Both the position numbers and the translations under genes were made by a program. A DNA stretch of 64,000 nucleotides from a virus (lineage: Duplodnaviria; Caudoviricetes): the IMG/VR virus record IMGVR_UViG_3300028844_006787. One strand, written 5' to 3'. The notes beneath the pieces were generated by a model. The model saw only the letters and a program-made list of their open reading frames with translations. It made no database searches and was not told the DNA's origin. This document shows positions 14,801 to 59,792 of the stretch, one piece after another; the stretch's first letter is position 1; each line of letters starts with the position of its first letter.

Positions 14801-17800
14801 GTCATTAAATTGTATTCTATATTTTAAAATCGGATTAAATGCGGAAAAATTATTTATTTCTTTATTTTTAGGTAATCGTTTATATGTTAATTTAACATCA
14901 TCCCACTCTAAATATAAATCAGTTTCCGTGTTTCCAACTTCACTATAATTAAATGCAGAATAATAATTCGCATCTTCTTTTGCCGTGTTTTTTACTTTAT
15001 GAAATTTAATCTCACTTACATCAACATCAATGTTTAAGACTAAAGTTTCATCAGAAATATACGGATTGCTTGAAGAATATCTAAGTTTTATATACATCGG
15101 TGATAAAGAAGGAATAGTATCAATTGTAAAAACTCCGTCCAAACTCGGAGTAATGCTTTTGTATTCTTCATTATTTACAGAAATGCTGAATTCATTAGTA
15201 CGACTTGTGCCAAGAATTCCATAAAGTGGGTCTGACCACCTTACAAAAGGTGCTTTACTAATATCATGTGGATTTGCATATGAACTTTGATTTCCAACCA
15301 CAAACATAAACGAAGACTCACTTAATTGAATTTCGTATTTATCAGACTCATTATTATATTTCACATTATCAACCACCAAATCAGGTAAAGTTCTGAAATC
15401 GTATGCGATAATACCATCACCGTTATCACCTTCCTCTAATTCTGATTCTATTGCACCGTTCTCACCAAGTTTTAAATAAGAATCCAATATATAATAATAT
15501 ATTTCATTCTGTTTTGCCGTATCGTTGTTTAATAAATATATTTCATTTGTAATAGCAGGAATTTCAAATTCATATGTATGCACACCAATCTCATCGGCCG
15601 CATTTATTCCTTGCTCAGAGAAATAATTTAATAACTCAGTTCGTGAAATAATAACCTTCTCCACATCTATATCTAGTTGCATGGTTTCATAGAAAGATTG
15701 ATAGTTCATTACATCCCAACCCTGTGCATCTCCAACTTTTTCTTTTGAGTTTCCTGTGTTAATAGTTCTAATTGAATATTCAATTGAATGGAACTCATCG
15801 TGCAGTGGTGTTTGTATTTCCAAACTTCCAAACACCTGTTTAGTTGGATCATTTTCAGAAAATCTAAGTTTTGGATTTAATTTTGCAGTTCCCAGTGGAT
15901 TTTTTTGATTGATGTTATTCTCCCATATTTTATCTATTTGAGACTTTGCACTAAGTCTTAGTGTCGATTCTGCCATAAAATCATATTTTGCGGTGGTTAA
16001 ATCATCTGCATTTATTTTATGATTTTCTGAATAAGAATCTGTTGCAGAAATTACAAGTTTATAGTAACCTACTATAAGATCTCGGTGCATCCAATTTATC
16101 TTATATGAATATTCAAGTATACTTTGGTCATATGAATTCAGTTCTTGTTTTATATTTGCCGATTCTACTAGTTCGGTGTGCCTTGGAATTTCTTCGTAGG
16201 TCGTACCATCATCGGTTTGTAAATAAAAATCAAATTTCCACTTTTGTATTTTAAGATGTAAATTTGATAGTTCATATACTTTGTGCGACCAATTTATTTC
16301 AACATCGTTTGCAACTTTATTAACTTCAATACCTGGATATATAAACATACCTGTCAAATTAAAATTGAATTGTTTAAAATTACTTGTTTGTGTACCTTCT
16401 GAATCATCTCCTTGGTATCGTGTAATTGGAGAATAATATAATTTAGAATAAACATCCGTTGGAACAAATTTAACGAACTTAGAATAACGGTCTTTAGTTA
16501 CTCGTCTAACATAAGGAACACACTTTAATTTATAGTCGTCTTCCGCATAAATTTCAGCAGGATGCTCTTTGTTTTCACGTATAATTCTTGGTAACTTGAT
16601 TATTTTATTACGAGTTTTGCTTATTATTGGAGTTCCATTTGCCATCGGCAAATCATCAAATGGACTTCCGTATTCTAAGTTTAGATCTTGGTCAGTTTCT
16701 CCAACCCACACATTATTATCATAGTTCTCAAATGAAGCATCTTTGTGTTTAGTAAGAAATACATATTCATAATAAAGAAAATTAGAATCATCGAGTGGAT
16801 CATCAATATGAAATACTGGATCCCAAGGATTTTGGTCACGATTATCTAATGTTATTTTTATTATTTTTTCAGCATGACCATAAACACTCACAATTGCAGA
16901 ATTGTCAATAGTGAAATCTGTATTCTTAATTGATTCTAAATCAAGACTGAGTTGATCAAGTATATGTGTATCTGATTCTGCTGATTTATAGACCTGCACA
17001 CCTAACAATTTTGTAACACGATTATTTACTTCTCCAAGTTTTTTAGCAGAAATTAAAAAATTATTAGAAATAAATTCGTCTGATGATGCCTGTTTGCTTG
17101 AAAAATTAGATACATCGTCCATTCCTGACATAGCAGTCAATGCAACACTTTGCGATGACGAAATAACAGAGTCTATGACATCTTCACTAACAGATGTTTT
17201 GTCTGCAATAGTTTCTATAACCGTACCCAATCCGTCTGTCACCGAATTTGTAATATTTCCATCTTCCTGCAAACTACTAAATGATTCTGTAAATAATGTT
17301 TTAGCATATCCTGATATAAAATCATCGTGTGTAATTTTATTTGATTCATCAACTTCATCATTGAATAAACTTGTAACAACATTTTTTACCAAATTTAATT
17401 TAAGATTTGCTTTGAGTGCCTTTGGATTTTGTGCATGAATATAATCAGAATTTACTTCGTCTTCGGTCAATCCAAATGCGTTTTCAATGATTCGATTTAT
17501 ATTATCGTTATCCTCAGTAACCCAGCCTTTTGTGCTAAGTTTTACTCCACTTACATTTTCTAATAATTTAGATTTTATCGTAGAAATTGGGGATATATTT
17601 ACATTTTCATTTGAAAGTATTGTGGCATCTGGACCAATATCGAGAGTACCGATACTTGTTAATGTTCCTTTATATTCTTCACCTGTTAATATATCAGTTC
17701 CACCTACAAATTCTATTTTATATGTTGTTGGTATTTCTTCTATTCCTAATGTTATGCTCCATCTTCCTGCGTCATCGGTTGTAAATGTAGTAACTTCGTT

Positions 17801-19099
17801 TGTTTCAAGTGTACCATCGTCTAATTTGTTTCCAGTAAAGGATAATAATTTACCATTGGCATTTGCAATATAACCATCAACAACACGACCTCCTAGTGTT
17901 CCTTGTTCAGCAGGAACTTGATTCATTAAACGCAGTGAAAGTTCTTGTATAATATTATTTTTTAAATTTTCTGTGTATATTACATTGAATCTCCATGAAA
18001 TCGTACCTGTTTCACTATCAACTATATCTGCTAGTCCATTTGTGTATTGATGTTTAAAATATAATAAATGATTTGACCATTCTTCTGCTTCACTTAATGT
18101 AACAATTTTAGATTGTGCTTCGTTTTCAATCCCCTCAATCGGATGACCACCACCAACAACCAATTTAAGTGGAAGTGATGTATCAGACAAATACAAATCA
18201 AGTTGTTCGGATAAATCATACAGATTTCTAATTTCTTCACTTACATTTTCATATTCGGTTCTAAGTATTTTATATCCCTCGGCAGGTAAATTATATAAAT
18301 CTGGATATAATTCTCTGATAACAAATTCATCGATTGGAGCATTTTTAATAAATTCTTCATATAATATATCAGTTTGAAAATTATATGCATAAACCGTGAA
18401 ATTAAATATTCTTGCGTAGTTTATTTTTGAGTTATCATCAACTCCCAATGATTGATCATTTTTTAAAATTTCACCAATTTTTACTAATGCTCGCAATGCA
18501 CCATACCCCGCACCTTCGTGACCACCGTATAATGCAACTTGTCGTTTTTCTCCGTGTATTTCAGGATAATTTTGTAATTCATCAAATATAACATCCGTAA
18601 CAAACTCTTCTAGCATTCTTTCTGTATAATTTTGTGTAGGTTGTTCCTGTTCTTCCACAAGTGTTTTAATGGTATTTGTATACCATCGTGTTTCTTTATC
18701 ACGAATAAACAAAACATCCGTATCAATTTCATTAAAATTCCATTTTTGGATTTGCCCGAGTGCATTATCTTTGAGTTGCTCACCCGATAAAAATCTTGAA
18801 AATGATTGTGAAAAACTTATATTAGTTTCATCTATTGAATCTACATTATATGTTTCAAGTGCATCAACAAACGGTGACTTATCAGGTTCAATATTATCTT
18901 CAAATTTTTCACACGGAGAGAATACAATCAAGAAATTCTTAGAACGAACAATCTCATTAGAATTACTCTTCGGTTTTGCATAATACATTACTGCATCCGC
19001 ATCTAATGGCAAAACACTTGGCTCTACTGAAGTATCACCGTAAAGTGTTCGTTTTAGTTCTGCTAAATTTCCAAAAATTTGTTTTATATCACTCTTCAT
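2873..19099 (-). CDS. Giant 5408-aa multidomain putative virion/surface protein
   Basis: Uninterrupted 16.2 kb ORF. N-terminal hydrolase-like domain; GRVVDGYIANA motif; Ig/FN3-like repeats (TPTWQW, PKFSW, TAIDSYGNES); propeller-like repeats (DISGDGNILVVSA, FGSEVSISTNG); Ca-binding DTDxD motifs. Confidence 0.8.
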   Translation of the reverse strand: MKSDIKQIFGNLAELKRTLYGDTSVEPSVLPLDADAVMYYAKPKSNSNEIVRSKNFLIVFSPCEKFEDNIEPDKSPFVDALETYNVDSIDETNISFSQSFSRFLSGEQLKDNALGQIQKWNFNEIDTDVLFIRDKETRWYTNTIKTLVEEQEQPTQNYTERMLEEFVTDVIFDELQNYPEIHGEKRQVALYGGHEGAGYGALRALVKIGEILKNDQSLGVDDNSKINYARIFNFTVYAYNFQTDILYEEFIKNAPIDEFVIRELYPDLYNLPAEGYKILRTEYENVSEEIRNLYDLSEQLDLYLSDTSLPLKLVVGGGHPIEGIENEAQSKIVTLSEAEEWSNHLLYFKHQYTNGLADIVDSETGTISWRFNVIYTENLKNNIIQELSLRLMNQVPAEQGTLGGRVVDGYIANANGKLLSFTGNKLDDGTLETNEVTTFTTDDAGRWSITLGIEEIPTTYKIEFVGGTDILTGEEYKGTLTSIGTLDIGPDATILSNENVNISPISTIKSKLLENVSGVKLSTKGWVTEDNDNINRIIENAFGLTEDEVNSDYIHAQNPKALKANLKLNLVKNVVTSLFNDEVDESNKITHDDFISGYAKTLFTESFSSLQEDGNITNSVTDGLGTVIETIADKTSVSEDVIDSVISSSQSVALTAMSGMDDVSNFSSKQASSDEFISNNFLISAKKLGEVNNRVTKLLGVQVYKSAESDTHILDQLSLDLESIKNTDFTIDNSAIVSVYGHAEKIIKITLDNRDQNPWDPVFHIDDPLDDSNFLYYEYVFLTKHKDASFENYDNNVWVGETDQDLNLEYGSPFDDLPMANGTPIISKTRNKIIKLPRIIRENKEHPAEIYAEDDYKLKCVPYVRRVTKDRYSKFVKFVPTDVYSKLYYSPITRYQGDDSEGTQTSNFKQFNFNLTGMFIYPGIEVNKVANDVEINWSHKVYELSNLHLKIQKWKFDFYLQTDDGTTYEEIPRHTELVESANIKQELNSYDQSILEYSYKINWMHRDLIVGYYKLVISATDSYSENHKINADDLTTAKYDFMAESTLRLSAKSQIDKIWENNINQKNPLGTAKLNPKLRFSENDPTKQVFGSLEIQTPLHDEFHSIEYSIRTINTGNSKEKVGDAQGWDVMNYQSFYETMQLDIDVEKVIISRTELLNYFSEQGINAADEIGVHTYEFEIPAITNEIYLLNNDTAKQNEIYYYILDSYLKLGENGAIESELEEGDNGDGIIAYDFRTLPDLVVDNVKYNNESDKYEIQLSESSFMFVVGNQSSYANPHDISKAPFVRWSDPLYGILGTSRTNEFSISVNNEEYKSITPSLDGVFTIDTIPSLSPMYIKLRYSSSNPYISDETLVLNIDVDVSEIKFHKVKNTAKEDANYYSAFNYSEVGNTETDLYLEWDDVKLTYKRLPKNKEINNFSAFNPILKYRIQFNDDDPFIVSSNKLNISEYLKDKSNIVGEYEIKVSATDENESQSREFTYNLNIQSDDNHNTSVVFGKGLGLEPLASETGGDFEFQWHFKEGNYVVNNSNRLKHYELFLDGEKLTRTIRRADPEDLKLGSFNYQDVELDYFEKNSVNTYTLQVDESGHHTFKVVGVLEAGIKTAEVSHMVNVKLELPAQPSGLDLQDIEEYTASDNGDVDTLSNGKIPFEKIPSISWTEDTDEETPVTHYRISLGSFTLESEKDNFNTDTTGTLSYDFATASEAPILEADNTYTISIIAINQLNVESDPAMLNFDVYYTSEQLLEIETATRNLLTDDGLNEELVVIRDGYFPPSIQIPTTHKYPSVTDSSSAPQDVTMLVTMDNPVSEYQVPTKSYVENDSNFKSHGRYYRLLTFNGSIGNPKWGVSKKPESFKNSSWQRTTKVSPNTKLLVGKTSSKFVVKLQPLDATRIKKYAKNPSSYKSGKYLFEIEKHDYRKSSGNLEYIEGEQSLNIGSNSGFGQEVLKYDFESPNKLDDFNVCISADIVSTHTYKQEFDIVVGESCADGSFRKIHEKVFGKDDDYTNGTAEYVDEPKTIMQTRTWTVFGKTNSHTSEVTNPNFSIGMPRTFPYSEVITRYNNERPNSKGSPVFAGYKFRSAVKYAISKNYKDFICVATQGGRPVVITLIDERAPKGKFAIYNKTEENKWPKHKTIPYDSSLIGGEKLGVVVNFSGNAEKVILGARSFIRSANSQSMNDIYTTNPSFAKNSDTPQNRRIDSTFSSINENGYAEKKEWVLYSNDVVKYYKIYAKTQITDEWYLIKEGSFEEIIQSTELKRFPSFRDKSYSSKWEFDFAEVGKIKIINKRKPNKFTYQEMIMVKEYTDYSLNHRKIIKFCSGQFPNLTLSDEQIKYRKDLGYSPIAKVYDKTSDIYKNITWGSFTTTDSSYDANAVFEPHTTHPSKEKTPPKICARKIVSNYTGDTVAVSIHTDEIIERYNREDIAYLKVFVNTGDGYIQKGQGISYLDCNEHGDFDISGDGNILVVSANKLTTKDCVKVFNYDAESDMWILNPQNEISMESADRTIYSPISEFTDLDGIKRKSYLFGSEVSISTNGNTITINAPGARRLWINSRCNISGGVFIYEYNSSISRYKKIPTPFSSFLNAFEDIITENFDRYVKDMKQRMRKLGYSSDKYTKDSIFNIIEAYLGLNLGGVIEWQDSNTSTRDTGPNVPTKVWYYDDIDLAAVETYGFAPGIPVKPNNFIKTKAPLEVVSIKDRDNSQILPKNQFYRVVSNFDTTDDSFVSYSINEETYEVDYADLSHLFILIKVVVEGSTEKEFLVKRTDRVDKWELVLPEAEITNYDDNVPPFEPVFKSNLINYTANKTPTWQWNPVNKKVNNTDIVQTLLEEGAEYNYYLNDNSDTASVTTTTDLEFTPTDYLDVGKHTLYLSAKDVVGNESGQVTYDIQVVGVNNLIVDGIKYFGTDSPEEITAYGETWYVSPSNLLDITWNKLADNIANDYKTIYYRVVLYKPEEVYLDEELVFESQLFTDNNFTMHYKVPMGYYKIGVGVVAIDENDNTLNSDYVYFMVKTNEQAIPHNRSCLPFNLKVLDTSDTEISNQVSIRKHNGSIIANHPTDATNPHPWYFHKPIYYATVSNAKDKQVKSFKVTLAIADEWLPSNQTTESDSIVSVSLFKVVHGDNTSGVEEDKYHGSFLGKISVGNNITDDGLNDGFTTGDNASEYITDGIMYFNGRERTDGLNYVSTTDYDSEKNYKYSLTNKIRFVDVEIPNCNLDAGIYEIHVKVANSSGETYDYPIGDLSNTYFYDQSTKQQVSNYNELYNEAFNNKLVVDYDVTRLVLKNTSNTANDIQITVNDDVVADGDSVNLFMGSDIKIDWTDLEPSIDSRSDSLLYPFSYKVRFEEDELEIGLSTPSITKKYQGSLGVNSYYTTSLNTQTNYAQDLLNYEYVLPSNFIREVINASVTTIEVYIDIYHFGGKLGTRTFTINLDSNTVELVEHTDNSSDYQIEIKDNKVELKWAYSLDMTDHSIFKKYKLRLSRSLSSNTQSVEVVHEEEHILEELQHYNSDDAPPETHYYDVFEYIDTYASNTSFVAHNYTLEIDVYTESPTASFTYELASSYPKESVRGILPTQLTYDSDNQTLSWSIDSLSDRNKTNRNLVELFDVSGEGEDITTEKLGEKTFEYDATTDNIREIDLKDHFSLKLGLINIQVTSYLLDNGIHNYSRTSPVITIDCDVETQGFEINNLKQKYTSKINLSATEAFYNTQTYANESFYENGWKLFVSYWKGLYRQENYVKINTNEKPNWTCVDPYQLDTTETDAEFSFTWNALAAAQSYTIKLRTYKITHEFANVLDGNLGKWDNLYWGKHQPTEQDKWMKEHPGYTDECWEDYWCSTGLEVDTSLKKANFSQLSKYEKKFIGIKEYTIDGDETEFKIPSDYINSYIVTDQNTRLFQGNYEITPRNIATHKENLSSKYHWGYITELEIVATRSDGYITQPVYSESLMFGDVKTKINLKDEIYANDKDLMKVNIDFIMHPFYNKTPLQITNRYKIVPIGRDADNFAWITRLSNNFGKQRITRKFANQGVYTLFVESTDNFGNTTEAQSRIVVGSGNKYFNQLSSHDEDDYTEPKTIPKYTGLLSAKYNEYAFAFVSKDEISKRINAYITHHPGLFELELYNKTNTDNSYEYKIGDFIRFNDDYTFELPEHVGSHEQVTTGSGVWVNEDDPMIASPIYYSERTNGVLDNMIDHKNLFNGYKSAINTPHTTRNNQIKNAIGARQKSSGMGDISKYLKSTLVNSGDFTEVIKQKFYIEHEFQTNSKQDVSSHDTSKKYGVIYGVNKTDTETELYVFLNGGCETTLWPPERGHGFKKPNPPSGTGYVVDEYLNQRDSAYTEYKWGPMAGTGGRIKIKISDSGTGANSGLWDVVAPITTEESLEASGLYKDEYATYTDNWIPTDLIRLNENTTLNEIYINDDNQVVELNNNITMQANDIIGLKFKIQGKFVFRVYSTESKGFKLYRLPDDVDATRWVSDPDRIVIQPGYPKHPQIIVDNIDNFTSSSNVYPTWKYSFDKSPGIFSADDPGYDINFQEDTYYERHLLKKNDSGGWDDVTSTLNVESEVSGVTDSDDVLLFKSGNDATDKQIALQNGTYKFTIQTIFKNKDNDSDNRKSTIAESRELTINLDPPANIYSLELTEQGGYEYTPGDNVEIYSNSGEYVSQIEADKVKWKWNLFGFTSEDGHYEVTLKEYIVDLNTTDQNGNPTGEGEFVEILKEEVNSTQFAFDDVKLDSIYKIEVVAVNLQGVSSDEPADDTIRMTDLTPPNSVTNIKFETPTFPVSFGVEQFFNDIPTWSWGAVDDAYEYRIDLEYADAKYDVSELHIGHTNNSLWVKQEDGTYKDPDGSTVDFTDTTYTDADGKEWPEPYNIPTIETGSGWSPPSEDEELLDLRNVKTNSFTPPKSLSRGKFWRIKVTAIDSYGNESNVTNSSGSYHLPHDTDKDEVADFYDYWKSDPTKKYNVSYLESLIPNPGLAPRVGNLVRFIGTAKYILVTQSYEYSVWDDGYNNPEFSVPSPEKPSDALKVQITPESGGWDTFGRMPTYAIVTWVHPTKSHIINLQYGPYTLRGNVETQGAKVDSGGNIISGKFVFVTRTLEEIIPQTPTNLSHNEEKNITTNKKPKFSWTSLDVDTFILKVDDEVVDDPTITKSENNFEYTPSEDLLGIIKFSVIATSETGQESEEVSITLRILKDTDNDSVADDFEYFIYDADDQRTTGELDEYKENSNRIPVIGDIIKLKDKIASPSVDGSKPNKIIREYSKFPYYKIIDIINNNKFVWYDGDDDVNRYFGKGQRTNKKWEIVSTQDQVNETNEIQQIQAMAEEDDNIEPISEEEKVAVVEYEDDPTGTPEVGSIIQFKKPRTRKSVPPGDNYQFKVGDYAKINKELKATVWLITRGSVENEDDPYKYTIPKSWIDNAIISMQKIKE

Positions 19100-19153
19100 G
19101 TTTCCCTAATATGTATTTTAAATAAATATTATTATTGTGTAATTTATTTAGTT

Positions 19154-22100
19154 TTATGTCCTTAATGTTTGGTAAGAAAAAAGTTGTTCACCATTCTCAT
19201 TTAATTCAATATAATAAGATGATTCAGACTCTGATGTAAATAGTCCACTTTTAATTGCCAAGTATTTTTTATCACCTGTTAATGTCAATAATACAATGTT
19301 CGCATATGTACCACTTTCGAATTGTTTTTCATCGTTACCAAGACTTTTTAAACTTATCGTCTGATTAAACTTTATGATATCACCAATAATTGGAACATAG
19401 TCCTCGTCAACCACTTTTTCTTCAAATGCTTCATCATACTTACTTTTAGTTTCAGGATCACTAAGAGATTCATTCAATGTATCTGCTTGTTCCACACGAC
19501 TCAATAAGAACCACTTACGCCCTCGGTCGGAATAATCGACAACAAGATTTTTAATTCCATCATATTGTGTTTCATACCTAAAAATTGCAATTGCATCTGT
19601 TGTTTCTGTAAGTGTAACGTAAACTGGGTTATGTGAACTAGCACTTACCCAATATGAGTGATCGTTTATAGAAGGGAAATTGTAACCACTTTGAATTTTA
19701 ATTAAATCACCCCTCTCTGGGAATTTAATATTATCCTCATACCACTTTGATTGATCTGCAAGATCCTCGTTGGTAAAGATTGTTTCTGCATCGTCTGGAA
19801 ATGCATCATCACTGTCAAGTATTCCATCCCCGTCACTATCTTGATCAATTGTATATTCTGCATCTACAATATGCTCTACACTTAATAAATCATTGCTAAC
19901 ATTTTTAGTAAATATTTTAAATTTATGAGTTCCGAGTGCAAGATCATTAATTAAAGTATAATATACAGTGTCACCGTTGGTTACTTCTGTATAAAGTGTA
20001 AGATTATTTAATTCACTATACGCATTTCTATTCACACTATGTGTTACTACAAATTTACTTTTTAATTGTTCTTGTGTTAAATCATCGTTGTCGTAATTCT
20101 CAATAATAGTTTGATTAGTTTGATCCCAGTCACTTCCATTGAATTTCCACATTAATTTTAAAGTAGCATTTCCACTTTTTTTACGTTCACTATTATATTC
20201 GGATTCATTTAATAACTTAGAATATAAACTTGAGTCGGTGACTCCAACAGGTACCCGTAAAGTTGGACTACCTATAATTTGCCACTTAGATCCTCTACTC
20301 AATAGATCCCCATCATATTCTACACCAAGATAACTAAATCTAAATTTATCGTTACGTTCAAGTGATTTTACAAATGCATAATAAACATGAGTACTATTTG
20401 TTAAACTTGGATTCGGTGAAATTGTGACACTCTTCCAGTTGGTAGGACTAAATACTGCCCAATCACTTAGTATTTCTATAACATCATATTCCTCCAATTC
20501 CTTATGTTCTAATTTTATAGTTTCATTTTTAAGATAACTTTCTTTGAAGGTGAAAGTTTTGTTGTGAGAAAAATATTCGTTTGCATCTAATACTCCGTCT
20601 TTATCAGTATCTTCCACCAAGTAAATCATAGATTCAACTGCACTTGATTCGTTTTCTGCATTGTCCATCGCAACTATTGATACTTTATATAAGTTATTAG
20701 ATTCTAACTGAAAACTTATTCTTTGCGTTCTAACAATCGTTGGAGTTCCTACAACTTCATATTCATCATTGTCATTTGTATTTTCTAGCACAAAGTGATT
20801 TGCAATATGAGAACCCGATGCTTTGATGTTTATTTTTTTACTTAATGTACACCTCCACTTTGAAGCATTTGAAAACCAAGACCATGTATATTCATTGCTA
20901 TTTGCAATGTTCGCAGTTGTAATTGGTGTGTATTCTGCTTGTTGTAATCCTATGTGTGTATTTGCAGTATCATTTTTTATTACCGAAACCACACGATACC
21001 GTGTACTAACATTTGATGTGCTTCCAAGTTGTGATTCGGTCAAAATACTAAATTTTGAACTCGCAAGACCAACAATTGTTCCTATTTCAGGATTCGTGGA
21101 TTCAGTTGCAAATTCAGATATATTCTGCAATTCTATATTCTTATTTATTACAATACCATCTGCATTTTTAGAAAAAATATAACCAAAAATAGTTGTTTCA
21201 TTAACCTCGGTGTTACTTGAAAGTTTAGTATATTTTAAAGACGATGTATCATAATAAATCGTATCATTTTCATTATATTCTTCTAAGTTTTCAATTAACT
21301 CAGAACTTAATACACTTACAAATTCATTTGAGTTTGACTTATAGTGTACACTCTTGCTTTGCCAATTCTCTCCATCTATTTTCAAATCCGTAATACTATT
21401 TGGTGCAGATGTATCTACTATTTTAACTTTTGAGGTTGCAGAATTTCCATACACTCCTTGGGTGTTTTTTGCTTTTACAATTATTTCGTAAGTTTCTCCC
21501 TCAACCGGAGAGTTGACACTAAATATATTATGTTTTAAGTTAAAGAAATTTTCTTGTCTAGTAACATTAGCAATACTTGTAATATTTACGATGACATCAA
21601 ATTTTACATTATTTATTTGATTCCATGTCCAAACTAAAGGTTTTCTATGGTTCTCTTCACCCGAAAAATATTTAGTTACACGTATTAATTCACGTGATCC
21701 GTTTTCAAATGATTCTTCTAGGTATTCAATGTCAATATTTGCATCAAAATTCTTTGGGTCTACTTGAATTATATCTCCGTCAGAATTTATTGTATGTCTA
21801 TTATTCACCACTGAAATAATTGGTGTAGTTGGTGTTGGTACATTTATTTCAAATTCTACATATCTAAAATCAGATTCACGATTCTCTAAAGGTGAATTCA
21901 TTACAAACACTGCTTTTACTCCAAATCTATATTTTCCATTAATTAATGGTCGGTCATCGGCTGTCGTGAAAGTAATAACTGTATCTTGATCTAGAAAATC
22001 ATATTCTCCAGAATCTGATGTTTGTGTTTGATCAACTAACTCACTCTCATAAATATCGTAAGCATCCGGATGTTCATCCCACATACTAGATTGTTCATTA

Positions 22101-23239
22101 TACTCTTGAAATACTCCAACATATTTCCATTCTTTTATCGACCCACTATCTAATTCAGTTGGTGTATTCGCAATTGCAAATTTAAAACTCGGAAATAAAT
22201 TATTTACACCTGATGTTATTCTATTATATGCTATAACAGGCATTAAACTCGGAGTCGATACCATGCTAGGTTCTTTTTGCAAAGCATTAAATTTCGCAGA
22301 TGCTACCACCTCGGTATTTGGATCAACCGTAGTTAAATCAGTCGCAGGTATCTCAACCATTTCGGAAAAACCATACTCTTCGTTAAACACCATTACATAA
22401 AAATTATCATTCTGTTTATTGTAAATTTTATATATTTGGTTAGCATTTAAAGTAACAGATATACCTTCAATTTTGGTATATTTTTTTGCAGAAAAGTTTT
22501 CAATATCGGTATCATCGTCTTCCTCTGCAACAACATTATATGATTCCGTTGAGTTCATTTTAATATACGAACCAATTGGTAATGAATTATAGGTTGCGTA
22601 TCTATCTTCTATCCAAGTATCGACATCCGCAGATTCCTCAATACTATTCTTTTTCAATAAAGTGTATTTTGTTGGTGAAATTGGTTTTTGATTTTCAGGA
22701 TCTATTTTTAATTTAATTGCAAATCCTTTTTTTCCGATAAGTTTACCATAGTTTCCGTTTTTTGGTTTGTCGGTTGCACCTGAATAGTCGTATTTATTTC
22801 CATGATTTACCCAAACATAAATTTCGTTTACCAATCCACTTGTTTCATTTCTATCAACATGAAAAATAATTCCATATTTTTGAATATGTTGTTCATCTAT
22901 CACCAAACTAGGATCAATAGTCTGATTGTGTTTGGCCGCACTTTTTAATTTGTATGTAGTTACTTTTTTTGTTGTTTTTTTATTTGGGTTTGCGTAATTG
23001 AAATCACTTTCACTATAATATTCCCAGTACTTATGTCTTGCCCTATTCTTCACACTTTGTGCTTTAGCATAGTAAGATGCACGGCACGACCAATCCCACC
23101 ATACCGTATGGCATTTTGGTTTTTTTCCGGCATACCAATACCTCATATATGTGTTATATGTATTTACCTGTCGTAGGTAAAGGTTACGTCTCCATCCATG
23201 CCAGTTTCCTCCCCCATGATATAAAATCAATATGCTCAT
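19154..23239 (-). CDS. 1361-aa protein collinear with the C-terminal quarter of the 5408-aa protein
   Basis: Shared blocks in order: KYGIIF/KYGVIY, NGKYRF/NGTYKF, DTSAPNSITDLK/DLTPPNSVTNIK, DTDKDGVLD/DTDKDEVAD; GGAGA upstream of ATG. Confidence 0.8.
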   Translation of the reverse strand: MSILILYHGGGNWHGWRRNLYLRQVNTYNTYMRYWYAGKKPKCHTVWWDWSCRASYYAKAQSVKNRARHKYWEYYSESDFNYANPNKKTTKKVTTYKLKSAAKHNQTIDPSLVIDEQHIQKYGIIFHVDRNETSGLVNEIYVWVNHGNKYDYSGATDKPKNGNYGKLIGKKGFAIKLKIDPENQKPISPTKYTLLKKNSIEESADVDTWIEDRYATYNSLPIGSYIKMNSTESYNVVAEEDDDTDIENFSAKKYTKIEGISVTLNANQIYKIYNKQNDNFYVMVFNEEYGFSEMVEIPATDLTTVDPNTEVVASAKFNALQKEPSMVSTPSLMPVIAYNRITSGVNNLFPSFKFAIANTPTELDSGSIKEWKYVGVFQEYNEQSSMWDEHPDAYDIYESELVDQTQTSDSGEYDFLDQDTVITFTTADDRPLINGKYRFGVKAVFVMNSPLENRESDFRYVEFEINVPTPTTPIISVVNNRHTINSDGDIIQVDPKNFDANIDIEYLEESFENGSRELIRVTKYFSGEENHRKPLVWTWNQINNVKFDVIVNITSIANVTRQENFFNLKHNIFSVNSPVEGETYEIIVKAKNTQGVYGNSATSKVKIVDTSAPNSITDLKIDGENWQSKSVHYKSNSNEFVSVLSSELIENLEEYNENDTIYYDTSSLKYTKLSSNTEVNETTIFGYIFSKNADGIVINKNIELQNISEFATESTNPEIGTIVGLASSKFSILTESQLGSTSNVSTRYRVVSVIKNDTANTHIGLQQAEYTPITTANIANSNEYTWSWFSNASKWRCTLSKKINIKASGSHIANHFVLENTNDNDEYEVVGTPTIVRTQRISFQLESNNLYKVSIVAMDNAENESSAVESMIYLVEDTDKDGVLDANEYFSHNKTFTFKESYLKNETIKLEHKELEEYDVIEILSDWAVFSPTNWKSVTISPNPSLTNSTHVYYAFVKSLERNDKFRFSYLGVEYDGDLLSRGSKWQIIGSPTLRVPVGVTDSSLYSKLLNESEYNSERKKSGNATLKLMWKFNGSDWDQTNQTIIENYDNDDLTQEQLKSKFVVTHSVNRNAYSELNNLTLYTEVTNGDTVYYTLINDLALGTHKFKIFTKNVSNDLLSVEHIVDAEYTIDQDSDGDGILDSDDAFPDDAETIFTNEDLADQSKWYEDNIKFPERGDLIKIQSGYNFPSINDHSYWVSASSHNPVYVTLTETTDAIAIFRYETQYDGIKNLVVDYSDRGRKWFLLSRVEQADTLNESLSDPETKSKYDEAFEEKVVDEDYVPIIGDIIKFNQTISLKSLGNDEKQFESGTYANIVLLTLTGDKKYLAIKSGLFTSESESSYYIELNENGEQLFSYQTLRT

Positions 23240-23256
23240 TTTAATTCATTCTCCAT

Positions 23257-26200
23257 TTATAAATAATACCTTCCCCACGAACGATAATACCCATAAGAAT
23301 AACGCCATCTTCCACGGGAATAAACATAATGATATCTACGCCTCCAAGTCCATGCTCTATTATAATACCAATAACCCCAACGATATCTCCACCATCTATG
23401 GTGAAAATACCAATTATTATATGTATTGGTATTATTTCTTCTACGATTATTTGTTGTGGTTGTTATTGTTTTAGTATTTGTTTCTATATACTTTCTATAA
23501 CCCACAGAATACTCTTCGTAATTTATGTAATTCTGAGTATATGTACCTGATTTGTTTGTTCCTATTGGAGTTTGTGGTATCTTAAACTCAATAATATCTC
23601 CAGGTAAATATGTTACATTTGAATCCTCACTTACCGATGAAAAATAACTTTCTATTTGTTGCTCAGTATAATCATAATCCGCAAATTTATTTAAATACGA
23701 TGCTATTGCATCTTCATCGTGTTCAAATGAATCAAGTGGTAATTCAATCGTAGGTGCTTTTGCATCAGCAATTGGTCTTTGTGATTGTGCAACGGTAATA
23801 TCCTCATATTCACCGACATTAAATTTGGTTGGTAAATCTTTAAAATATCCTTTATTTGGAACTACTTCGTAATTTATTTCTTGCTCAAATTTTGTGTCAA
23901 ATTGACTAGTTGCTACTACTTTTAATGTATATGTTCCAATTAAGTCATGGTTATCTAATTTTAATTCACCGGTTTGAGTGCTTGAATCTATTGTAACGAT
24001 ATGTTCAGTAGGATTTGCACGAGTCGCATCGGTTAAAGTAATCGTGATATTCGAAATAGGATTTATTACATTATCGTTTTTACTATCCTCAAGTTCTATT
24101 GGCAAAAACACAGAATCATTTTTCACCGTAAATACCAAATCTAAATTTTCTTCGTTTGTAATATATTGTTTAATTCCACTTATATCAACTCTTGGTTTAA
24201 ACTCGGAAAACATTATAGGTTCTGATGATTGGGTTTCTCCGTATACATATTCACTGGCATCAAGAGTATATGGTGTTATCAAACAAATATGCATAAATCC
24301 TAGAAAGTGATTTCTTTGAACCAAAGATTTTAACTTTTCATCTGATTCATTGTATATACTATTTAAAATTCCCCAATCACCAACTTTTCTGTTTATATCT
24401 GGACGAGCTGCTTCGGAGGAAGTTACATATTCATCAAGAAAATCCTGCGATAATTCACGTTGATTATCAGATTTGTGCATTATTTCATCTTTATAACTTA
24501 TTTCACGAAGATGTTCATCATCTTCTTCACCAACTTCTTCAACATAATATGATGTGTATTTATATAACAATCCTGGATCACCAGTTGTTTGTTCAACAGG
24601 ATTATTAGTTTGCTCGGTTGCATACCAATCATCGTTTGGATCATTTGGAGTGTCGGTCAACCAAGTTTGAAAAAGTCTAAAAGTTTTTACTTCAGTTTTA
24701 TATCCGTCTGCACCTTGTACAGGATCCCATGTCCAATAAAATGCATCGTTATCCTCATCTACAAAATTTCCTTTATCAGGTATAGGATTTATACAAATAA
24801 ATTCAGGTCTTTCATTCCATACTACTTTTTCAAGTTCTCCATTTGCATTTTGTACCATTGTAGATGACCACATTTCATCTTCTTCTGCATCGTGAAAGAA
24901 ATTATTTTGCGAAGGAATAAACATAGTCGGAGTATTTTTTACTCTTATGTTTCTGACATTTGCTAAATCATCATGAGTTGCATCCCATGAAACGTTATCC
25001 TCGGTTATAGTTTCATCGTAGTATTTTAAGTTTACAATCACATTGTAAGTTATACCACTTGGTACTCCTGATGTAGTAAGTGCATATTCAAGTGTATTAT
25101 CATTTGCCTTATTATCATAAGATATAATCTCTTGGTGTTCCTCGGTTTCACCATTCATTATTTTTACTACAATAGATGTTGTTTTTCTTGCAGTTACATC
25201 TGGTATTGACCATGATAAAATTCCAAGATTATTTAAATTCAGTGTTGGGTTTGTAAAAGTTGGAGCAAATGATTTACCATCTATTAGTCGTGTAGTTCCA
25301 CCAAACTTATCATATGCAGTAATATGAAGTTCAAATGTATAAAAATCGTCGAATGATACTCCATTTAGAGAATATTCAAATTCATCATAAAATTCGTAAG
25401 CATTATTAGGTGAAGATGCAGTTAATGCTTCTACTCCACCATCGGTTGCATTTACAGATCTTGTTATTGTTGTCCCAACCTTGGTTCGTTGAGCAAGTGG
25501 TCCAAGTAAAAGATCACGTGTTTTTAAACGATACAACTCTAACTCGTATTTATCAAATACCAATTCATGTGAAGTATCTTTAACATCAAGATAATATGCC
25601 CACTTCATAGTATCACCAGTTTTGTGTTCTATACCAGAACCACCCTCTTCATACATGAACATATCTAGTTTATTTTCAAATAATGTGAAATTAAATTCTG
25701 CACTATTTAAAGGCATATCATATAAATACGTTGTGAGTGTACCCTTTATATTTGTAGTATTTGTAATAGAATATACATCCGCAGGAATAACATACTGAAA
25801 TAATTGATCAGATTTGCGTGAAATTTTTAGATTAGTTTTATTTTTAACATCGTCTTTATATTTTGATGTCTTGCGTGTATCATTTAAATCATCTGTAAGA
25901 GTTGAATTATTGAAAGTTACTTTGTATATCAATGGTTCGTAACTCGAATCTGTCGTTGGAGATATATCATTCCAATTAATTGTAATTGGTTCACCTATTT
26001 TTACATTTTCTGTACTATCCAAGTATCCACCGGAAATAGATGGTGATAAATCTCCATTTGTATTTACACTAAATTTGTTTAAAACATATAATCTATGATT
26101 ACTTTCATTCCACTCGGTAACATTTGATAACGAATCATCAATCGGTGAATGCATTTTAATTCTGACATTATATTTGTCTGGTAAAAGACCACCGATTGCT

Positions 26201-29200
26201 GATAAATCAATTTCAAATTTTTTCTTTACTAGTTTATATTGCATTACACCACTCGGAGTATTTTCATTTACTAAATTAGTAGCAACAGATACAAGTGAAC
26301 TATGTCCATTGTGTCCATTTGCAAATACATTAAAAGTGTGCCCATTGACAACAAATTCTCCTGTTTTAAAACCAGATATATAATCAGTTTCAAATATTGG
26401 TGTACTTAAGTTTTCACCTTGTGTGTCTGTTTTAAAGATTTCTATTTTTGCAAGAGTTTCATTATCACCTTCGGTTAAATCAGCATAATCAAAATCTATA
26501 CCGAATTTTCCTGAGGAGAACCGACTATCTATTTTTCTGTATGAAGCAATTTCTATTGTAAATTTTTCTAGTTTTTTATTATTCTGATTATCATCTTTGA
26601 GTGGTAAAAAATACCAACTAGAGTTTTCCCACGAGGTTCCTGCCGTATTACTAATAGTTCCATCAAATGGATCATCTCTAGGTTCATCAAGATAATCATA
26701 ATCACTTACTTCTTCATGTATCTCAATATTTTGGTCTTGATCATTCGTTGCACTTGTTATTTTCCAACCTCTTAATATTGGATTATTAATTGTATAACCA
26801 ATATCTTTAAATGTTTTTGTAGTAAAACTATCACTTAGTATATATCTTCTCTTGGTAGTTTCGGGCATAATGCGTTCAGGATCTAAGTAAAAATTAGTTT
26901 CTGTATCTCCTACAACGAATATTCTAATATGATATGTGTTTTTTTCTATTGCAAATGGAAACTTATATGATGTTTCAGATATTTCATCTGAAGTATAAAT
27001 TAATTCGTCCACATCAGTATCTAAACTTTCACTATTAGGATCATTTGCTTTCCATAATTGTAATATATACCCAATGTTACTCCATGTTAATTGATACTCG
27101 TCATTTGCGGTTGCCACCGCATTGTTATATGCATCATCTAACACATCGTTCCAAGAAAATATTGGATTTTCTTGATCATCTATTTCAATTGAAGTTATAT
27201 TGACCTGCGGAGAAACGGCATCTGTGTCTAATTTGTAAAAGCATTTAGCATCACTTGCTTCTGATGTGTTTGTTGAATCATCTTTTGCAGTTATACGAAA
27301 ATGATTCTCGGCATTACTTGAAAAATCACGATATGTCGATTTATCAAAACCATTAATATTTGTTGAAGAAATCCAATGATTACCTATATAAGTAACATCT
27401 GTTGGAAACTCATGCCAAGTAGTTCCGTTTCCACTTTCTCGCATTTCCACTAAATATGCAGGATTTTCTTCGTGTACAACTTTTTCTAAATTTTTACTTG
27501 AAAGTCGTTTATATGCAGTATCCCACTCAAGTGAAAGATAATTCTGAGTTTTATATGCAATTGCATAGTTTTTGGAAGGATAGTTTTTACTTTGATAAAT
27601 TTCGTCTATTTTGTGTGGTGGTAACTCATCAGGAGATGCAAAACCTGGACGAACTAAATTCCATGTATATTCTCCACGTGATTCACGATTTAACAAATAA
27701 GTTCCTGCAACTGAATTATTATCAATTACCTCGATTGCAATGTATCTATCGGATATATCTTTTTTTATTGATTTGTTGTTTTTCTCATCAATGGAATAAC
27801 CTACAAGTGGAACTAAATCAAATGTATTTACAACTTTATATATTTGAAGTTTTGGCAATACAACAGATACACGAAAATCGTTGATATTAAATACTTCAAC
27901 ACTTGAAAAGGTTTTAATAAAATCACCAACAATGATTTCTGTTTCACCTGCAATTGGCCAATTTTTTATTTCCTCGAAAGTTCTTCCGAGTTCATCATCA
28001 TAAAACCAAGAAGTAGATGGACCTTTTGGTCCTGAATTTCTAATACTTACATTTTGTTGAGTATTAAAATTTAAATTTCCTTTTATTTTAAATACATTAG
28101 TTCCAAGATAATGATTGTCTTCACCTCCTGTACTTTTTTCTATAAGTGAGGTTTTTCTTAAACTATATTCACCCTCAAAGTCATAAGCATTTATATCACT
28201 AAATGTTATACCGTATGCTTGTTTATATTTATTTGATATATTTTTAAATATTTTGTCTTGAACTGATTCTTCTAGTGCAGATAATGGTGATACTTGTGGA
28301 ATCCATTCATTATCTCCTGCGTTCTCATACACGATGATTCTTCCAGTTGTTCTTGCATCAGGAATTTCTGAATTGATTCCGTGGGGTGCAGAAACTACAA
28401 TTGAGTTTCCATCATAGGAAAGTTTTATTTCACTTCCATATCCATTATCAGCAATCTCTGCATCTAGTCTTACAAGTTCATGTGTAAACTTATGATTTAT
28501 ATTATCCGATTCAACTAATTTATATTTACTTCTTTTATATGCACTTGAAAAATCTTGGGCATTTACATCTATTGAACGTTCTTTAGTTTTTGTTTCGTCC
28601 CATTTATTCTCTACTTCATTTAATGTAAATATTGTAAAACTTGCATCATCCTCTGTGACTTTTGATAATGCAAGAGTTTTTCCGTCACCTGATAAACTAA
28701 CATCTCCACGTTCATTTACAAATCTATTGTTAATGAATCCTTGACCAAGTTGTACCCAATTGTCGTGATCTAATGTATCTACTTTAAATACTTTTACGAG
28801 CATTATATTTGTATTATCTCGTTTGAGTCCAGGTCTTAATTTAACTGCCATCGTAGATCCATCGTCACTTAAAACGATTTTTTCCGCAGAAAATTCAGCA
28901 GCCGAATTTACCCAAGGACTTCTTCCTGCTGTTTCGGCACTTATATAATCTACATTTTGTGAATCAACTGAGTCTGATTCAACGGATAAATTGTAACTTT
29001 CAAAATCTGGTCTTTTAAAAGAACCTCCTTTTGATGCAGATTCCATATAATCAGATGGATTATATTCGTCTGTAAGATGTCCTCCCCAATTTATATATTT
29101 GTATTCCGTATCAACTGAGTTGGTTGATGTATCTACACCAATTGTTGCAATTATAGGTGTATGTGAAAGTATTTTTTTCTTTGGAGTAATATAGGAATCC

Positions 29201-32200
29201 AATAACACCGCATATACTTTTTCTGAATTACCGTATGCTCCGTATATGTTTGTTTGAGATACTCCGTTTTTATCATAAGCAGTCACACGAATCTGACGAT
29301 TATATCTTATGTCATTTGGATGAAACAATGCGTTCGTGTCTACATCGTCTTCTATTTTTTGTCCTTCTACACGAAAATATATATTTTGATTATAATCGTT
29401 ATATTTTAAACTAAACTCCACATTTGCATTGTATATATTTGCATAAACAGTACTACCATCATCCATTAATTTGTTATATTCACGTTTAGGTTCGTTTAAT
29501 TTTGGTAGAGTGGTTTTAGAATGCCATGTATTTGGATTCTTGGTTAGTTCAGTCTCAGCACTATCACACCAAACAATATCCCAATCAGAATAACAAGTCT
29601 TTTTATACGATACTTCGTAGTACACATATTGATTGTGAGGCCATTGAAATTGTACGTCTGCGATAGGTCTTGTTAAATTTGCCCCACTTGTTAATGAGTA
29701 AGAAGAAGGTGAGTCGTAATGTTTTGTAAGTATAGTATCATTACTTTCACTATAATTTGCAAGTTTTATATCAAATTCAACAAAATCTTCATCAACTTTA
29801 TTTTCCACGTCAGGTGTACTAAGCAATCCAATTGCAACTTTATTGCCACTTCTACTCATTGCAATATTGTTTCCTGCAAATTGCACATTTTTGTCAAATT
29901 CAGGAACATTTATTTCTTGGAACTTATTTGAATACGAAAATAGTTTCCATTCACCACTTGGTTTTTCAAACTTTGAAAACTTTACTGCTATACCAGAATT
30001 TATATTTTCCTTGCCACTATTTGCAGTATCTCTTTCATTACCATCACCACACGGAGGTAGACTTGTAACGATTGTATCACGTTCATATGCATCTAATCTA
30101 AAAGTGCGAGCATAATCTTTTAATATTTTTAAATCATTATTAGAGTTAAATGGTTCGGACTCAGTTTTTAGAATACGTGCATTAGAATTCCACCCTAAAC
30201 CTATATCATTTATTTTAATTGAGTATTTTTGAACACTTGGTAATTTTCCGTTTACACTTGAATCACCAAATGCAATTAAAGAACCATCTTCATTTGAACA
30301 CATAGTAGTATATCCAAGCAATTCAAAATATTTTCCGGTTGGTTTATCGTGATTAAATTGCTTTTGAGTACTACTTTTTTCAAACACTTTAGTAACATTC
30401 TTTTGTGAATCTTCCGTGAAAATATACATTGAATAGCCATCTTCTGCTCTTGGTTTCCAATCTAAATTATCAACTACTAAATTGTAATCGTGTCCATTTT
30501 CATATGAATATCTACTAACTCTGTGTGTAACACCTGCAGGAAACCATTTTTTCACTATCTGTTTTAGCTTTCTACCTTTATAAGTGGTTTTATATCGAAT
30601 TTCGTTCGTATAGTTTCTATCTTGAAATTTAGATGAACTTACAATTACTTTTTGTGAATCTTGAGTGTGAAATAAATTACAATCTGATGGTAGTGGTATT
30701 GGTTGATATGAAGTCCAACCAGAACCACTTTGATTAAATCTAGCAGATAATAAATAATCGTCTCCTGTGTATACATCAGTTCCTTTTATAGAAACTGCCA
30801 TACCTATTTTAACGTTATCTGAATCCAACTCTGATATATCATTTGTTATTTCACTTGGTGGAAGAATAACAGAATTTGAACGCATTACATTACCACGCAT
30901 TCCTGCTGGTCCTAGTGTAGAAATGTATTGAGTAATACTACGGTCTGCTCCTGCATCATCTAATTGAGCATCTGTATACCATATTCCAAATTGTAATTGC
31001 TTTCCTTCTCCAGGAATACCCTCTGTGCTAATTGGAATAACGGATATAACATTAATTTCACCACCTGTCTTCAATCCATCTGTATCTAATGATAAAGTAA
31101 ATGATGCAGAAGATTCCTCATATGAGTTGTCGTCTCTATCAACCTCTAAAATATTAGAACCCCATTTAACTTCATAGTATGCTATTTCTTCTCTATCAGC
31201 AGATTCATCGGTTTCCACAAATTTTATATTTGCGGGTTCATTATATCGTATGATATTTTTTCCAGATACCTCAGTATTTAACAATTCAATACTCTTTGGT
31301 GGTTTTGGAGTTTCAAAATTTACACTAATTGTATGTGTAAACTCTTGTGATTTCTGTCCCGATGCCAATACCGCAGTTACTCCAAGTGTATAATCACCTT
31401 CACTGTCAAATGTTTCCGAGAATATATTTCTAATACCTTTTTCAAAATAATCCAACTCTTTGGTTATTGTAAGTTCACTTTTAAATTTACTTGATGTGTC
31501 TATTCCTGTGATTTCATTTTTTACAGGTTCATCATTTAAGGTTAATTCATAATACCTTATCTTTGGTGAAAGATTATTGTAATTTTCTTCGTCCTTAAAG
31601 TGCCATTCCCATTCAACCAAGGGTAAATTTGTTTTATTTGGAAGTGTATCTCTTACTAAACCACTTGCAAACTCAACCTGTACATCGGTGTTAACAAGTG
31701 ATTTCCAATTAATTTTAAAATCTTCTGATAATGATTCTTGATTTGATTCATCCAGTGCGACTACATTAATCTCCATGGCCTCATCACCACTAATTGTTAT
31801 ACTATTTTCTTTTATATAATCAGATATATCAAAATAATTATTTTCTAAGATAAATGATTCAGCATTTCCGACTTTAACTTTATATTTGTAAGAGAGTCCT
31901 AGTTTTTCTAATCCGTTTACTTGAATTCCACCAAAAAGGTTTGGAAGATTGCTTCCGAAATTTTCCCACTCTAAATATAAATTAGTTTCTTCGGTGTTTA
32001 CTTCAGCAGTATTTGTATCTCGGTCAAACGGATATACATGATTTTTATCTGAATATGTTGCTAGTTTGGTAAATGTTATTTTTTTAAATACAAATCCAAG
32101 TTCGAATTCATATCCATCACTTGGTAATATTGCTGAATTTGAAGAAACCGTTCTTAATGATATTGTTCTTTTTTCAAATGAAATAGGATTTGGATACTGA

Positions 32201-36528: not shown

Positions 36529-36617
36529 AAGTCTTCCAAACTTTAAATATTAAATCATTACAAGAATCCTTTGTATTTTTTTCATTTCAATTGTTTATTT
36601 TATAGATAAGTTTATAT

Positions 36618-36697: not shown

Positions 36698-37849
36698 CTA
36701 AGAACCAGCATTTGTGTTGTCTAAGATTTTGTCTAAAAACATATTTTTTAAATTAGATATAAATGTTACTTTTGAATATGTAATTGTACCATCTTCTGCT
36801 GTATCACCAAAAACATTCATTTGTTCGTTTCGGTATAAACCATAACTATTGTATCCACCTGGTGTGGAATAATCTACTGCGTTGTTGGTGATAGCCTCTT
36901 CGGTATGACCACCACCGATATACATTTTGACCCACTTTACACTATTTCCATCAACATCAGTTTGAGTGGCATCTAGCATCTCAAGTAACTTTGGATATAA
37001 TACATAGTTGGAATGCCAATCATTCTCAAAATCACTTACTCCGTATGGTGCATTTGCATCAGATTTAAATACAATTTCTTCATCAAACAAATTAAATTGT
37101 TCATCAGTTGGATTCCAATTATGTGGTTGTGGATACATATGATCTTTAAGAGTTGTACCGTCACCCGGATCTGATCCCGTATAAGGTTGTTCTGGTACAC
37201 TCATTAAATCCGTTTGGAAGTTATACCCAAAAAGATTCAGATTATAATTCTTGTTGTCACCATCTATTTTATCAAACAATGCACAAGCAAATCTAAATGC
37301 ACCATATCCTGCACCTTCGTGACCACCCACAACACTTATATTTGAATAATTATCATATCCATCGATATAGTCTTCGTAAACATCAGCTGCAAACTCTTCA
37401 AGAGTTTGACGATCTTCACTTGGATTTTCATCGGTTGCATTTTCAACGTTTGTTACAATTCCATTCATATACCACTTCGCAGATTTATCACGAATAAACA
37501 TTATATCTGCATCATTACCAGTCCATGCTTCGGTTTTTTCAGAAACCGTTCCATTATTATAATCTAATAGATTTTGTGTGCCATCTAGATAATCAATTAT
37601 ATTTTGACTAAAATTAGCTCCTCCTGTTGAAATTTGATAGTTTGGAAACTCTTCTACAAACTTAGGTACACTATCTGAGTTTGGTGAAAAAACTATAATC
37701 AACGAAGTTCTCACAGACTCTTGTTGCTTCAGCAGAATAACATCATGCTCATAATTTGCGTCACCGTGTGCGGTTTTGAAACTGCCATATGAGTTATCTC
37801 CGTCACCAGTTACATTTTTTCGAAATTGTTTTATATCACTCCATGCCAT
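36698..37849 (-). CDS. 383-aa standalone homologue of the N-terminal domain of the two giant proteins
   Basis: SDIKQ, IVFSP, FIRDKxxxWY, GGHEGAGYGA, YNFQTD, GGGH, NLKN all shared; GGAGA RBS. Confidence 0.8.
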   Translation of the reverse strand: MAWSDIKQFRKNVTGDGDNSYGSFKTAHGDANYEHDVILLKQQESVRTSLIIVFSPNSDSVPKFVEEFPNYQISTGGANFSQNIIDYLDGTQNLLDYNNGTVSEKTEAWTGNDADIMFIRDKSAKWYMNGIVTNVENATDENPSEDRQTLEEFAADVYEDYIDGYDNYSNISVVGGHEGAGYGAFRFACALFDKIDGDNKNYNLNLFGYNFQTDLMSVPEQPYTGSDPGDGTTLKDHMYPQPHNWNPTDEQFNLFDEEIVFKSDANAPYGVSDFENDWHSNYVLYPKLLEMLDATQTDVDGNSVKWVKMYIGGGHTEEAITNNAVDYSTPGGYNSYGLYRNEQMNVFGDTAEDGTITYSKVTFISNLKNMFLDKILDNTNAGS

Positions 37850-37922
37850 TTTTATATATCTCCAATTGAATTTTTTAAAATTACAATTATAAATATAAAA
37901 ACTTATAAAAAATAATACAAAA

Positions 37923-43232: not shown

Positions 43233-43468
43233 AAAGCAGTGGTGGACCCGGCAGGATTTGAACCTGCGACCAAAGGATTATGAGTCCCCTGCTCTAACCA
43301 CTGAGCTACGGGTCCCTGAATTGCATCGTTGATTTTAGTTTGCATAATACGATGAAATTCTATTCTACTATGAATATTATTGTCAATAGCATTTTGCAAA
43401 TGCACTTCGTTGTCGTATGCAATAGTCAGAATTTCTTCTGTTGTTAAATTAAGTGTGTGATTGTTCAT
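43226..43468 (-). CDS. Hypothetical protein whose frame runs through the tRNA
   Basis: 80 aa ORF; first ~50 codons look like normal coding sequence, last ~28 are tRNA sequence. Confidence 0.4.
   Translation of the reverse strand: MNNHTLNLTTEEILTIAYDNEVHLQNAIDNNIHSRIEFHRIMQTKINDAIQGPVAQWLEQGTHNPLVAGSNPAGSTTALC
43240..43315 (-). tRNA. tRNA-Ile2 (anticodon CAT, lysidine type), CCA encoded
   Basis: GGACCCG TA GCTCAGTGGTTAGAGC A GGGGA CTCATAA TCCTT TGGTC GCAGG TTCAAAT CCTGC CGGGTCC ACCA; 76 nt; resembles bacterial ileX and lacks initiator features. Confidence 0.9.
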
Positions 43469-46134: not shown

Positions 46135-46145
46135 CGTTTTTATCC

Positions 46146-55977: not shown

Positions 55978-56003
55978 ATCTTTATTATAAATAATATTTT
56001 ATT

Positions 56004-59764: not shown

Positions 59765-59792
59765 ATAAGTAAATATAGCAGATTATTATAAT

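Follow-up and report, generated by a model that had tools for sequence, protein, structure and literature searches.

The 64,000-nucleotide (nt) viral DNA stretch IMGVR_UViG_3300028844_006787, here called the window, carries a giant gene that is split into two adjacent open reading frames (ORFs): ORF A (23257..36528, minus strand, 4423 amino acids [aa]) as its upstream part and ORF B (19154..23239, minus strand, 1361 aa) as its downstream part. Directly downstream of B lies the unsplit paralog, ORF C (2873..19099, minus strand, 5408 aa). Our analysis indicates with high confidence that the junction between A and B is a real, anciently fixed boundary of two separately translated genes that are jointly equivalent to C, and that B is started anew, with no recoding or splicing involved. 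A sequence-only reading of the window had reported these three ORF lengths, which we confirmed, and had proposed that the split evolved, with an apparently genuine restart signal. This proposal holds, and extends to a maintained split, as the junction is identical in independent assemblies and the split, the Shine-Dalgarno (SD) sequence and the ATG are kept in all 4 lineages identified; with all relatives split as well, its further claim that the break is not a lone sequencing error or rare lesion also stands. The annotation would thereby be settled as two real genes, neither a frameshifted pseudogene nor a recoding site, and the locus would offer a natural example of a very large protein that has long been kept as two chains, with its unsplit paralog adjacent as a built-in control.

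Junction anatomy and conservation of the split

On the minus strand, the junction consists, in this order, of TAT TAT TTA TAA, AT, GGAGA, ATGAATTAAA and ATG. The TAA stop of A (23257..23259, minus strand) is followed by the SD sequence GGAGA (23250..23254, minus strand), which lies 10 nt before the ATG of B (23237..23239, minus strand), with ATGAATTAAA as the spacer between the two; this ATG is the first start codon past the TGA that closes B's frame. All three frames had been described as closed within 23241-23259, and the three stops responsible were located: A's frame ends at the TAA at 23259-57, B's frame is closed upstream at the TGA at 23248-46, and the third frame is closed at the TAA at 23243-41. 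Therefore, no single indel can join A and B. The spacing of GGAGA before the ATG had also been likened to that before 37849, 48261 and 55510; indeed, GGAGA with an A-rich spacer of 7-10 nt precedes all of these starts, and the start at 39559 can be added to them. A and C are without a clear GGAG-type SD (36529-36560 and 19100-19153, respectively), and that of B is perfect; translation of B may therefore be more efficient than that of its two giant neighbors.

A second element of the restart signal fared less well. The sequence-only reading had pointed out that TATTATTTATAA, found upstream of B, also occurs before 55977. The recurrence itself is correct (at 55996). However, TATTATTTATAA is absent from the junctions of relatives, and TATAAATA/TATTTATA are not over-represented within the window, so that the recurrence is probably due to chance. 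The coding-strand motif TATTTATAA (minus-strand TATTTATA) is found upstream of three starts, including that of B (23258-23265, 37888-37895 and 55986-55993), and TATTTAT occurs 24 times on either strand of the window, i.e., without strand bias. An internal promoter for B formed by TATTTATA was considered and rejected, as the motif is neither kept in relatives nor enriched. At the RNA level, the junction folds no better than shuffled sequences (z = -0.34 for the window and +1.45, +0.67 and +1.13 for the lineages L001, L002 and L011 introduced below), and no conserved hairpin, stimulatory structure or pseudoknot was detected at the junction RNA of these 4 lineages. Such an unstructured junction would fit an open initiation region.

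The split was recovered repeatedly, both within and beyond the lineage of the window. A 451-nt segment spanning the junction is base-identical to the window in L008 (JGI) as well as in L009 and L010 (two Logan runs), and the exact B protein was found on contigs of a JGI metagenome, an ENA assembly and two Logan runs, with A always ending 17 nt upstream. In a second lineage, represented by L002-L007, the junction is identical in six runs. The B homologs of the other lineages comprise 1348 aa with 75% identity to the window's B (L001), 1370 aa with 52% identity (L002-L007), and 1372 aa with 51% identity (L011, the fourth lineage, whose B is 90.6% identical to that of L002). Every B homolog sits behind an A homolog of approximately 4400 aa. 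L011 carries, in this order, a 4474-aa A, the 1372-aa B and a C-like gene with a length of at least 4370 aa. Upstream of A, both the window (36698..37849, minus strand, 383 aa, directly adjoining A) and L011 (1842-2978, 378 aa) have a free-standing gene of approximately 380 aa; thus, the four-gene order of small gene, A, B and C is conserved.

The comparison of fused and split orthologs, which had been proposed as a check, revealed the split in 4 of 4 lineages and no fused form. In a search of proteins of 2432-7741 aa, only A-sized proteins (4423, 4412 and 4474 aa) matched the C-terminal 824 residues of A, and no fused form of approximately 5800 aa was found. Furthermore, there was no fused ortholog among candidates of 2383-5000 aa, nor in a profile search of 1.84 billion representatives, in which, apart from two weak matches to repeats, nothing but the family itself was recovered. 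Relatives of A or B were absent from GTDB species genomes and, by tblastn, from INPHARED phages; IMG/VR, which was queried with B and the N-terminal domain, contained no relative either. A search of JGI metagenome contigs gave none with B and a single 2.6-kb fragment (L012) that contains the N-terminal domain and stops short of the junction.

While the split is shared, its geometry is not. From the first stop to the ATG of B, the spacer measures 17 nt in the window (B in frame -1 relative to A, one TAA), 19 nt in L001 (frame +1, TAA TAA), 24 nt in L002 (frame 0, three in-frame TAA) and 31 nt in L011 (frame +1). In the latter, an expanded GGAGAA-type repeat, GAAGGAGAAGGAGGAGAA, adds 7 nt relative to L002 and shifts the frame (L011 16546-16576 versus L002 9977-10000). 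A GGAG(A) is positioned 8-11 nt before B's ATG in 4 of 4 lineages, even though the spacer otherwise diverges. The conservation of GGAG(A), together with the lack of a constant frame relation, supports an independent initiation of B.

The equivalence of A and B to C, which the sequence-only reading had described as collinearity, is clear for A and, through weak yet ordered matches, also found for B. With blastp, A matches C in four ordered segments that reach A3952/C3777, the identity being 40% across the first 630 residues and 22-27% thereafter. Comparison of B with the whole of C by blastp resulted in zero matches at 1e-5, whereas comparison with the C-terminal 1700 aa of C yielded ordered weak matches in three segments: B120-622 aligns to C4261-4760 (E 3e-6), B845-904 to C4889-4951, and B1094-1315 to C5139-5364 (E 2e-5). 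We therefore regard A plus B as a real collinear equivalent of C, which for the B part is suggested by approximately 22-27% identity. The region of C that matches the A|B junction (approximately residues 4122-4267, from GDFIRF to KYGVIY; 6299..6736, minus strand) is continuous and not basic-aromatic.

All three giants are very acidic (isoelectric points of 4.7-4.85, with 4.7 for A). Searches of Pfam and PHROG gave no family for A or B, the ESM Atlas gave no usable match, and C carries one bacterial Ig-like domain, Big_13, near residues 5093-5172. In B (gene 19157-23239), residues ~877-890 and ~1132-1148 form Asp-rich, DxDxDG-like stretches (DTDKDGVLD and DQDSDGDGILD), which resemble calcium-binding thrombospondin-type-3-like repeats and are invariant across a three-lineage alignment. 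As the three giants have no recognizable family, any functional clue would open up an orphan group of phage proteins.

Alternatives to separate translation

Giant repetitive genes are error-prone in metagenome assemblies, and the sequence-only reading had a single sequence at hand, which could speak for a sequencing or assembly error, or for a recent inactivating lesion, in a truly continuous gene. However, the identity of the junction in four assemblies of the window lineage and six of another, the presence of the split in every lineage down to 51% identity, and the closure of all three frames, which leaves no repair by a single indel, render this explanation extremely improbable. Moreover, B keeps an open frame of 1361 codons in DNA of 32% G+C, with a ratio of nonsynonymous to synonymous substitution rates (dN/dS) below 1. 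Programmed frameshifting or stop-codon read-through, by which a fused A-B protein would be made, would agree with the fact that A and B adjoin and are collinear with a fused paralog, and recoding is known in phage structural genes. The sequence-only reading had kept a recoding site open as an alternative to fission, and this part of it was not borne out: the relative frame varies (-1, +1, 0, +1), the spacer differs even between the lineages with 90.6% identical B proteins, every path crosses one to three stops with frames that have no open overlap, and the junction has neither a slippery site with structure nor any other RNA structure that could stimulate recoding. No signal for frameshifting or read-through could outlast such shifts in frame and spacer from one lineage to another, and we consider recoding highly improbable.

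Translational bypassing of the gene-60 type, with take-off at A's last sense codon and landing on the same codon early in B, was considered as well. In all lineages, one of the first 7 codons of B repeats, in frame, the last codon of A (TTA at codon 6, TAT at codon 7, and, for two lineages, TAT at codon 3). In addition, the take-off codon is succeeded by a stop, the gap contains an SD with AU-rich flanks, and the nascent peptide is strongly basic. The codon match was, however, noticed post hoc and is expected by chance at ~1-5%. Among the features listed for bypass cassettes are a take-off stem-loop and, 5-7 nt upstream of the landing codon, an SD-like triplet (Manning & Atkins 2022, bioRxiv 10.1101/2022.08.31.505936); at the A|B junction, no stem-loop starts at the take-off codon, and the SD is 16-25 nt away from the would-be landing codon while being at the canonical distance from the ATG. 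There is also no similarity to the context of a MobA cassette, and bypassing is very unlikely. A split intein, with the tail of A and the head of B as intein halves that ligate the two proteins after translation, would account for the extra sequence at both new termini, and fractured genes with split inteins are reported from environmental phage DNA (PMC2677866). Yet Pfam searches of A and B, and of the isolated tails with E values up to 10, found no Hint or intein family, the insert has neither an initial Cys/Ser nor a final His-Asn followed by Cys/Ser/Thr, and its Arg/Trp/Tyr composition is unlike that of inteins, with both halves being basic. The probability of this explanation is therefore minimal. 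Finally, a group I intron or other RNA element across the compositionally odd region was rejected, as Rfam matched only a tRNA in the window and the long open frames in all lineages favor translation.

With two separately translated genes as the favored reading, ribosomes would end A at its TAA, and B, with GGAGA and ATG as start signals of its own, would begin afresh 17 nt further on, either through fresh 30S binding or through termination-reinitiation coupling on the same mRNA; frameshifting, read-through, bypassing and protein splicing would not be in play. As 17 nt leave no room for a terminator, A and B share one mRNA context. The split might let the level of B be set separately, whether or not translation of the 4423 codons of A is completed. 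Since ribosomes are increasingly lost the longer a message is, this would be a plausible benefit.

Basic-aromatic termini and proposed joint action of A and B

The break lies within a segment that is specific to A and B. EYSVGYRKYIETNTK marks the end of the conserved body of A, and KSAAKHNQTIDP...KYGIIFHV the beginning of that of B. The stretch of C between these blocks consists of 140 residues of ordinary, unrelated and non-basic sequence, whereas A and B have approximately 170-210 compositionally extreme residues, split included. The C-terminal tail of A (23260..23475, minus strand) comprises 72 aa with a net charge of +16 and no Asp or Glu, in which a Thr-rich stalk is followed by an Arg/Trp/Tyr-rich segment; the N-terminal head of B (22946..23239, minus strand), 98 aa with a net charge of +14, is basic and rich in Tyr, Trp and Arg and precedes the conserved KSAAKHNQTIDP block. 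Across lineages, the net charge of the A tail ranges from +12 to +16 (with up to 60% Arg/Trp/Tyr/Phe/His in the window) and that of the B head from +9 to +17. The basic-aromatic composition is kept, in the annotated frame, in all four lineages, including those at 51-52% identity. No other ORF of the 64-kb window has such a segment, and C has none.

These termini are kept in character rather than in sequence. When the window is compared with L001, the insert changes at three to four times the rate of the bodies (proportion of nonsynonymous differences, pN, of 0.27-0.36 versus 0.06-0.11). In the annotated frame, dN/dS amounts to 0.66 for the A tail, 0.37 for the B head, 0.45 for the A body and 0.62 for the B body, each time the lowest of the three frames. 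A +1 frame of approximately 70 codons, rich in Ile, Gly and Val, is also open across the A tail (window 23244-23462, minus strand; L001 9787-9990). It was considered as the true frame of the tail and dismissed as a by-product of TGG, AGA, CGT and TAT codons, since Trp, Arg and Tyr codons have no T at codon position 2; moreover, it is dissimilar in L002 and L011 and has the highest dN/dS.

Because every lineage retains A and B side by side, in one orientation and collinear with C, we infer that the two chains still work together. The fast-evolving, A/B-specific insert, inside which the break lies, equips both new termini of these otherwise very acidic, Ig-like-repeat giants with a cationic Arg/Trp/Tyr-rich segment, and these segments may aid the joint action of the chains by contacting one another, the acidic bodies or a polyanion. 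More specifically, the A tail and the B head might constitute a terminal docking module that keeps the gene split, acting either as a cation-pi/aromatic clasp or as a free-end knob that binds a polyanion, e.g., a sulfated glycan of the kind this phage appears able to make. We put this idea forward tentatively and consider it rather unlikely as it stands. If true, the module would represent a type of assembly element that is new for the fibers of giant phages. In any case, the conserved Arg/Trp/Tyr termini are the sole feature of the locus that could exceed the ordinary: such extreme termini, kept in character, are a candidate for how split giants hold together, and, provided that they recognize one another or a specific partner, they might serve as small association tags.

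Several points weigh against this overall picture of a two-gene unit held together by its termini. The evidence for conservation comes from four lineages, two of which (L002 and L011) are close to each other. B shows weak homology to the C-terminal part of C. Discrimination between frames is likewise weak for the A tail, with a dN/dS of 0.66 compared to 0.70 and 1.18. AlphaFold2, run on single chains with 4-row alignments, predicted helices at residues 13-36 and 56-70 of the B head with a predicted local distance difference test (pLDDT) score of ~67-86, i.e., moderate confidence (mean pLDDT of 55 for the N-terminus of B); confidence was low for the C-terminus of A (mean pLDDT 43), with nothing reliable for the A tail, and a Foldseek search against the PDB gave nothing meaningful. 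Furthermore, as both tails are positively charged, a simple electrostatic pairing of the A tail with the B head is unlikely. Lastly, the production and association of the A and B proteins are predictions from sequence.

Direction of the event, known split systems and genome context

The sequence-only reading had spoken of an evolved fission. While an evolved and maintained split is well supported, its direction is less certain, as a fusion that gave rise to C from an ancestrally split state, with A|B never having undergone fission, is about as parsimonious. The split A|B and the unsplit C (at least 4370 aa continuous in L011, by gene call) both predate the four lineages, and one event suffices either way. 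In addition, gene fusions outnumber fissions in prokaryotic genome comparisons, which favors a fusion of C. Against this, the break lies inside an insert that is entirely absent from C, an arrangement that could result from an insertion carrying the stop and start, but also from a deletion in C. No outgroup was found in GTDB, IMG/VR, INPHARED, the 1.84 billion representatives or the JGI metagenome contigs. On balance, we lean slightly toward a fission of A|B, and regard the fusion of C as a serious contender that falls somewhat short of being probable.

Among known split systems, the closest likeness is to the split nrdA of Aeromonas phage Aeh1, a gene of a T4-related phage that is likewise broken into two adjacent genes whose new termini carry novel tails that are missing from the unsplit homolog, in our case C. 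In Aeh1, the enzyme assembled from NrdA-a and NrdA-b requires the novel C- and N-terminal tails that were created at the split (Crona et al. 2010, PMC3045599), and its function is regained with no RNA splicing, protein splicing or recoding, none of which would be involved for A and B in the favored view either. However, whereas the endonuclease gene mobE still lies between the Aeh1 halves, A and B are separated by only 17-31 nt with no mobile gene in the 4 lineages; an old hit-and-run insertion of an endonuclease at A|B is conceivable. Two further differences are that the Aeh1 tails were shown to be essential, while the long, Arg/Trp/Tyr-rich tails of A and B (~70-110 aa) are candidates for such a role, and that the protein concerned is here a giant without an assigned family.

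The topoisomerase genes 39/60 of T4, with the gene 60 bypass cassette (10.1101/2022.08.31.505936; PMC2988022), resemble A|B as a myophage gene that is split at a fixed place, with a stop directly after the upstream part and a gap that contains an SD with AU-rich flanks. They differ in that A|B is without a take-off stem-loop, without an SD 5-7 nt before a landing codon and without MobA, its SD and ATG instead being at a normal initiation distance. Ordinary translationally coupled pairs of prokaryotes that stem from fission or fusion are also adjacent and co-oriented, with a spacer of less than 35 nt, an SD in or just past the end of the upstream gene, and collinearity with a single-chain homolog. 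Compared to these, A and B stand out by their size (~5800 codons in total), by a fused paralog next door, and by compositionally extreme termini that are kept over deep divergence. A|B thus adds to a known class, i.e., split genes with a translational restart and novel tails as in Aeh1 nrdA, a case from an orphan family of giant proteins.

The window has a G+C content of 32%, and nearly all of its genes are on the minus strand. The presence of cysD/cysN, an epimerase and an alanine dehydrogenase had raised the option of a bacterial origin, which was given up in favor of a large phage on the evidence of a tail fiber, a resolvase, PHROG families and a myophage protein. Specifically, a 1945-aa protein combines collagen repeats, a lectin-like domain and an endosialidase-chaperone domain typical of tail fibers; a RusA-like resolvase is encoded as well, as are several PHROG families without an assigned function; and one small protein is common to large myophages and jumbo phages. 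With parent contigs of 205-222 kb, these features fit a large uncultured phage as the source. The sole tRNA of the window, a tRNA-Met (CAT) at 43240-43315 (minus strand), is the only Rfam match and is located directly upstream of a MYG1-like gene. Two regions, 43829-47051 and 57222-62159, contain cysD, cysN and the epimerase together with several glycosyltransferases and flank the tail-fiber-like gene with collagen repeats and an S74-type chaperone domain as well as a subtilase; judged by its predicted genes, this set fits a toolkit for sulfated glycans.

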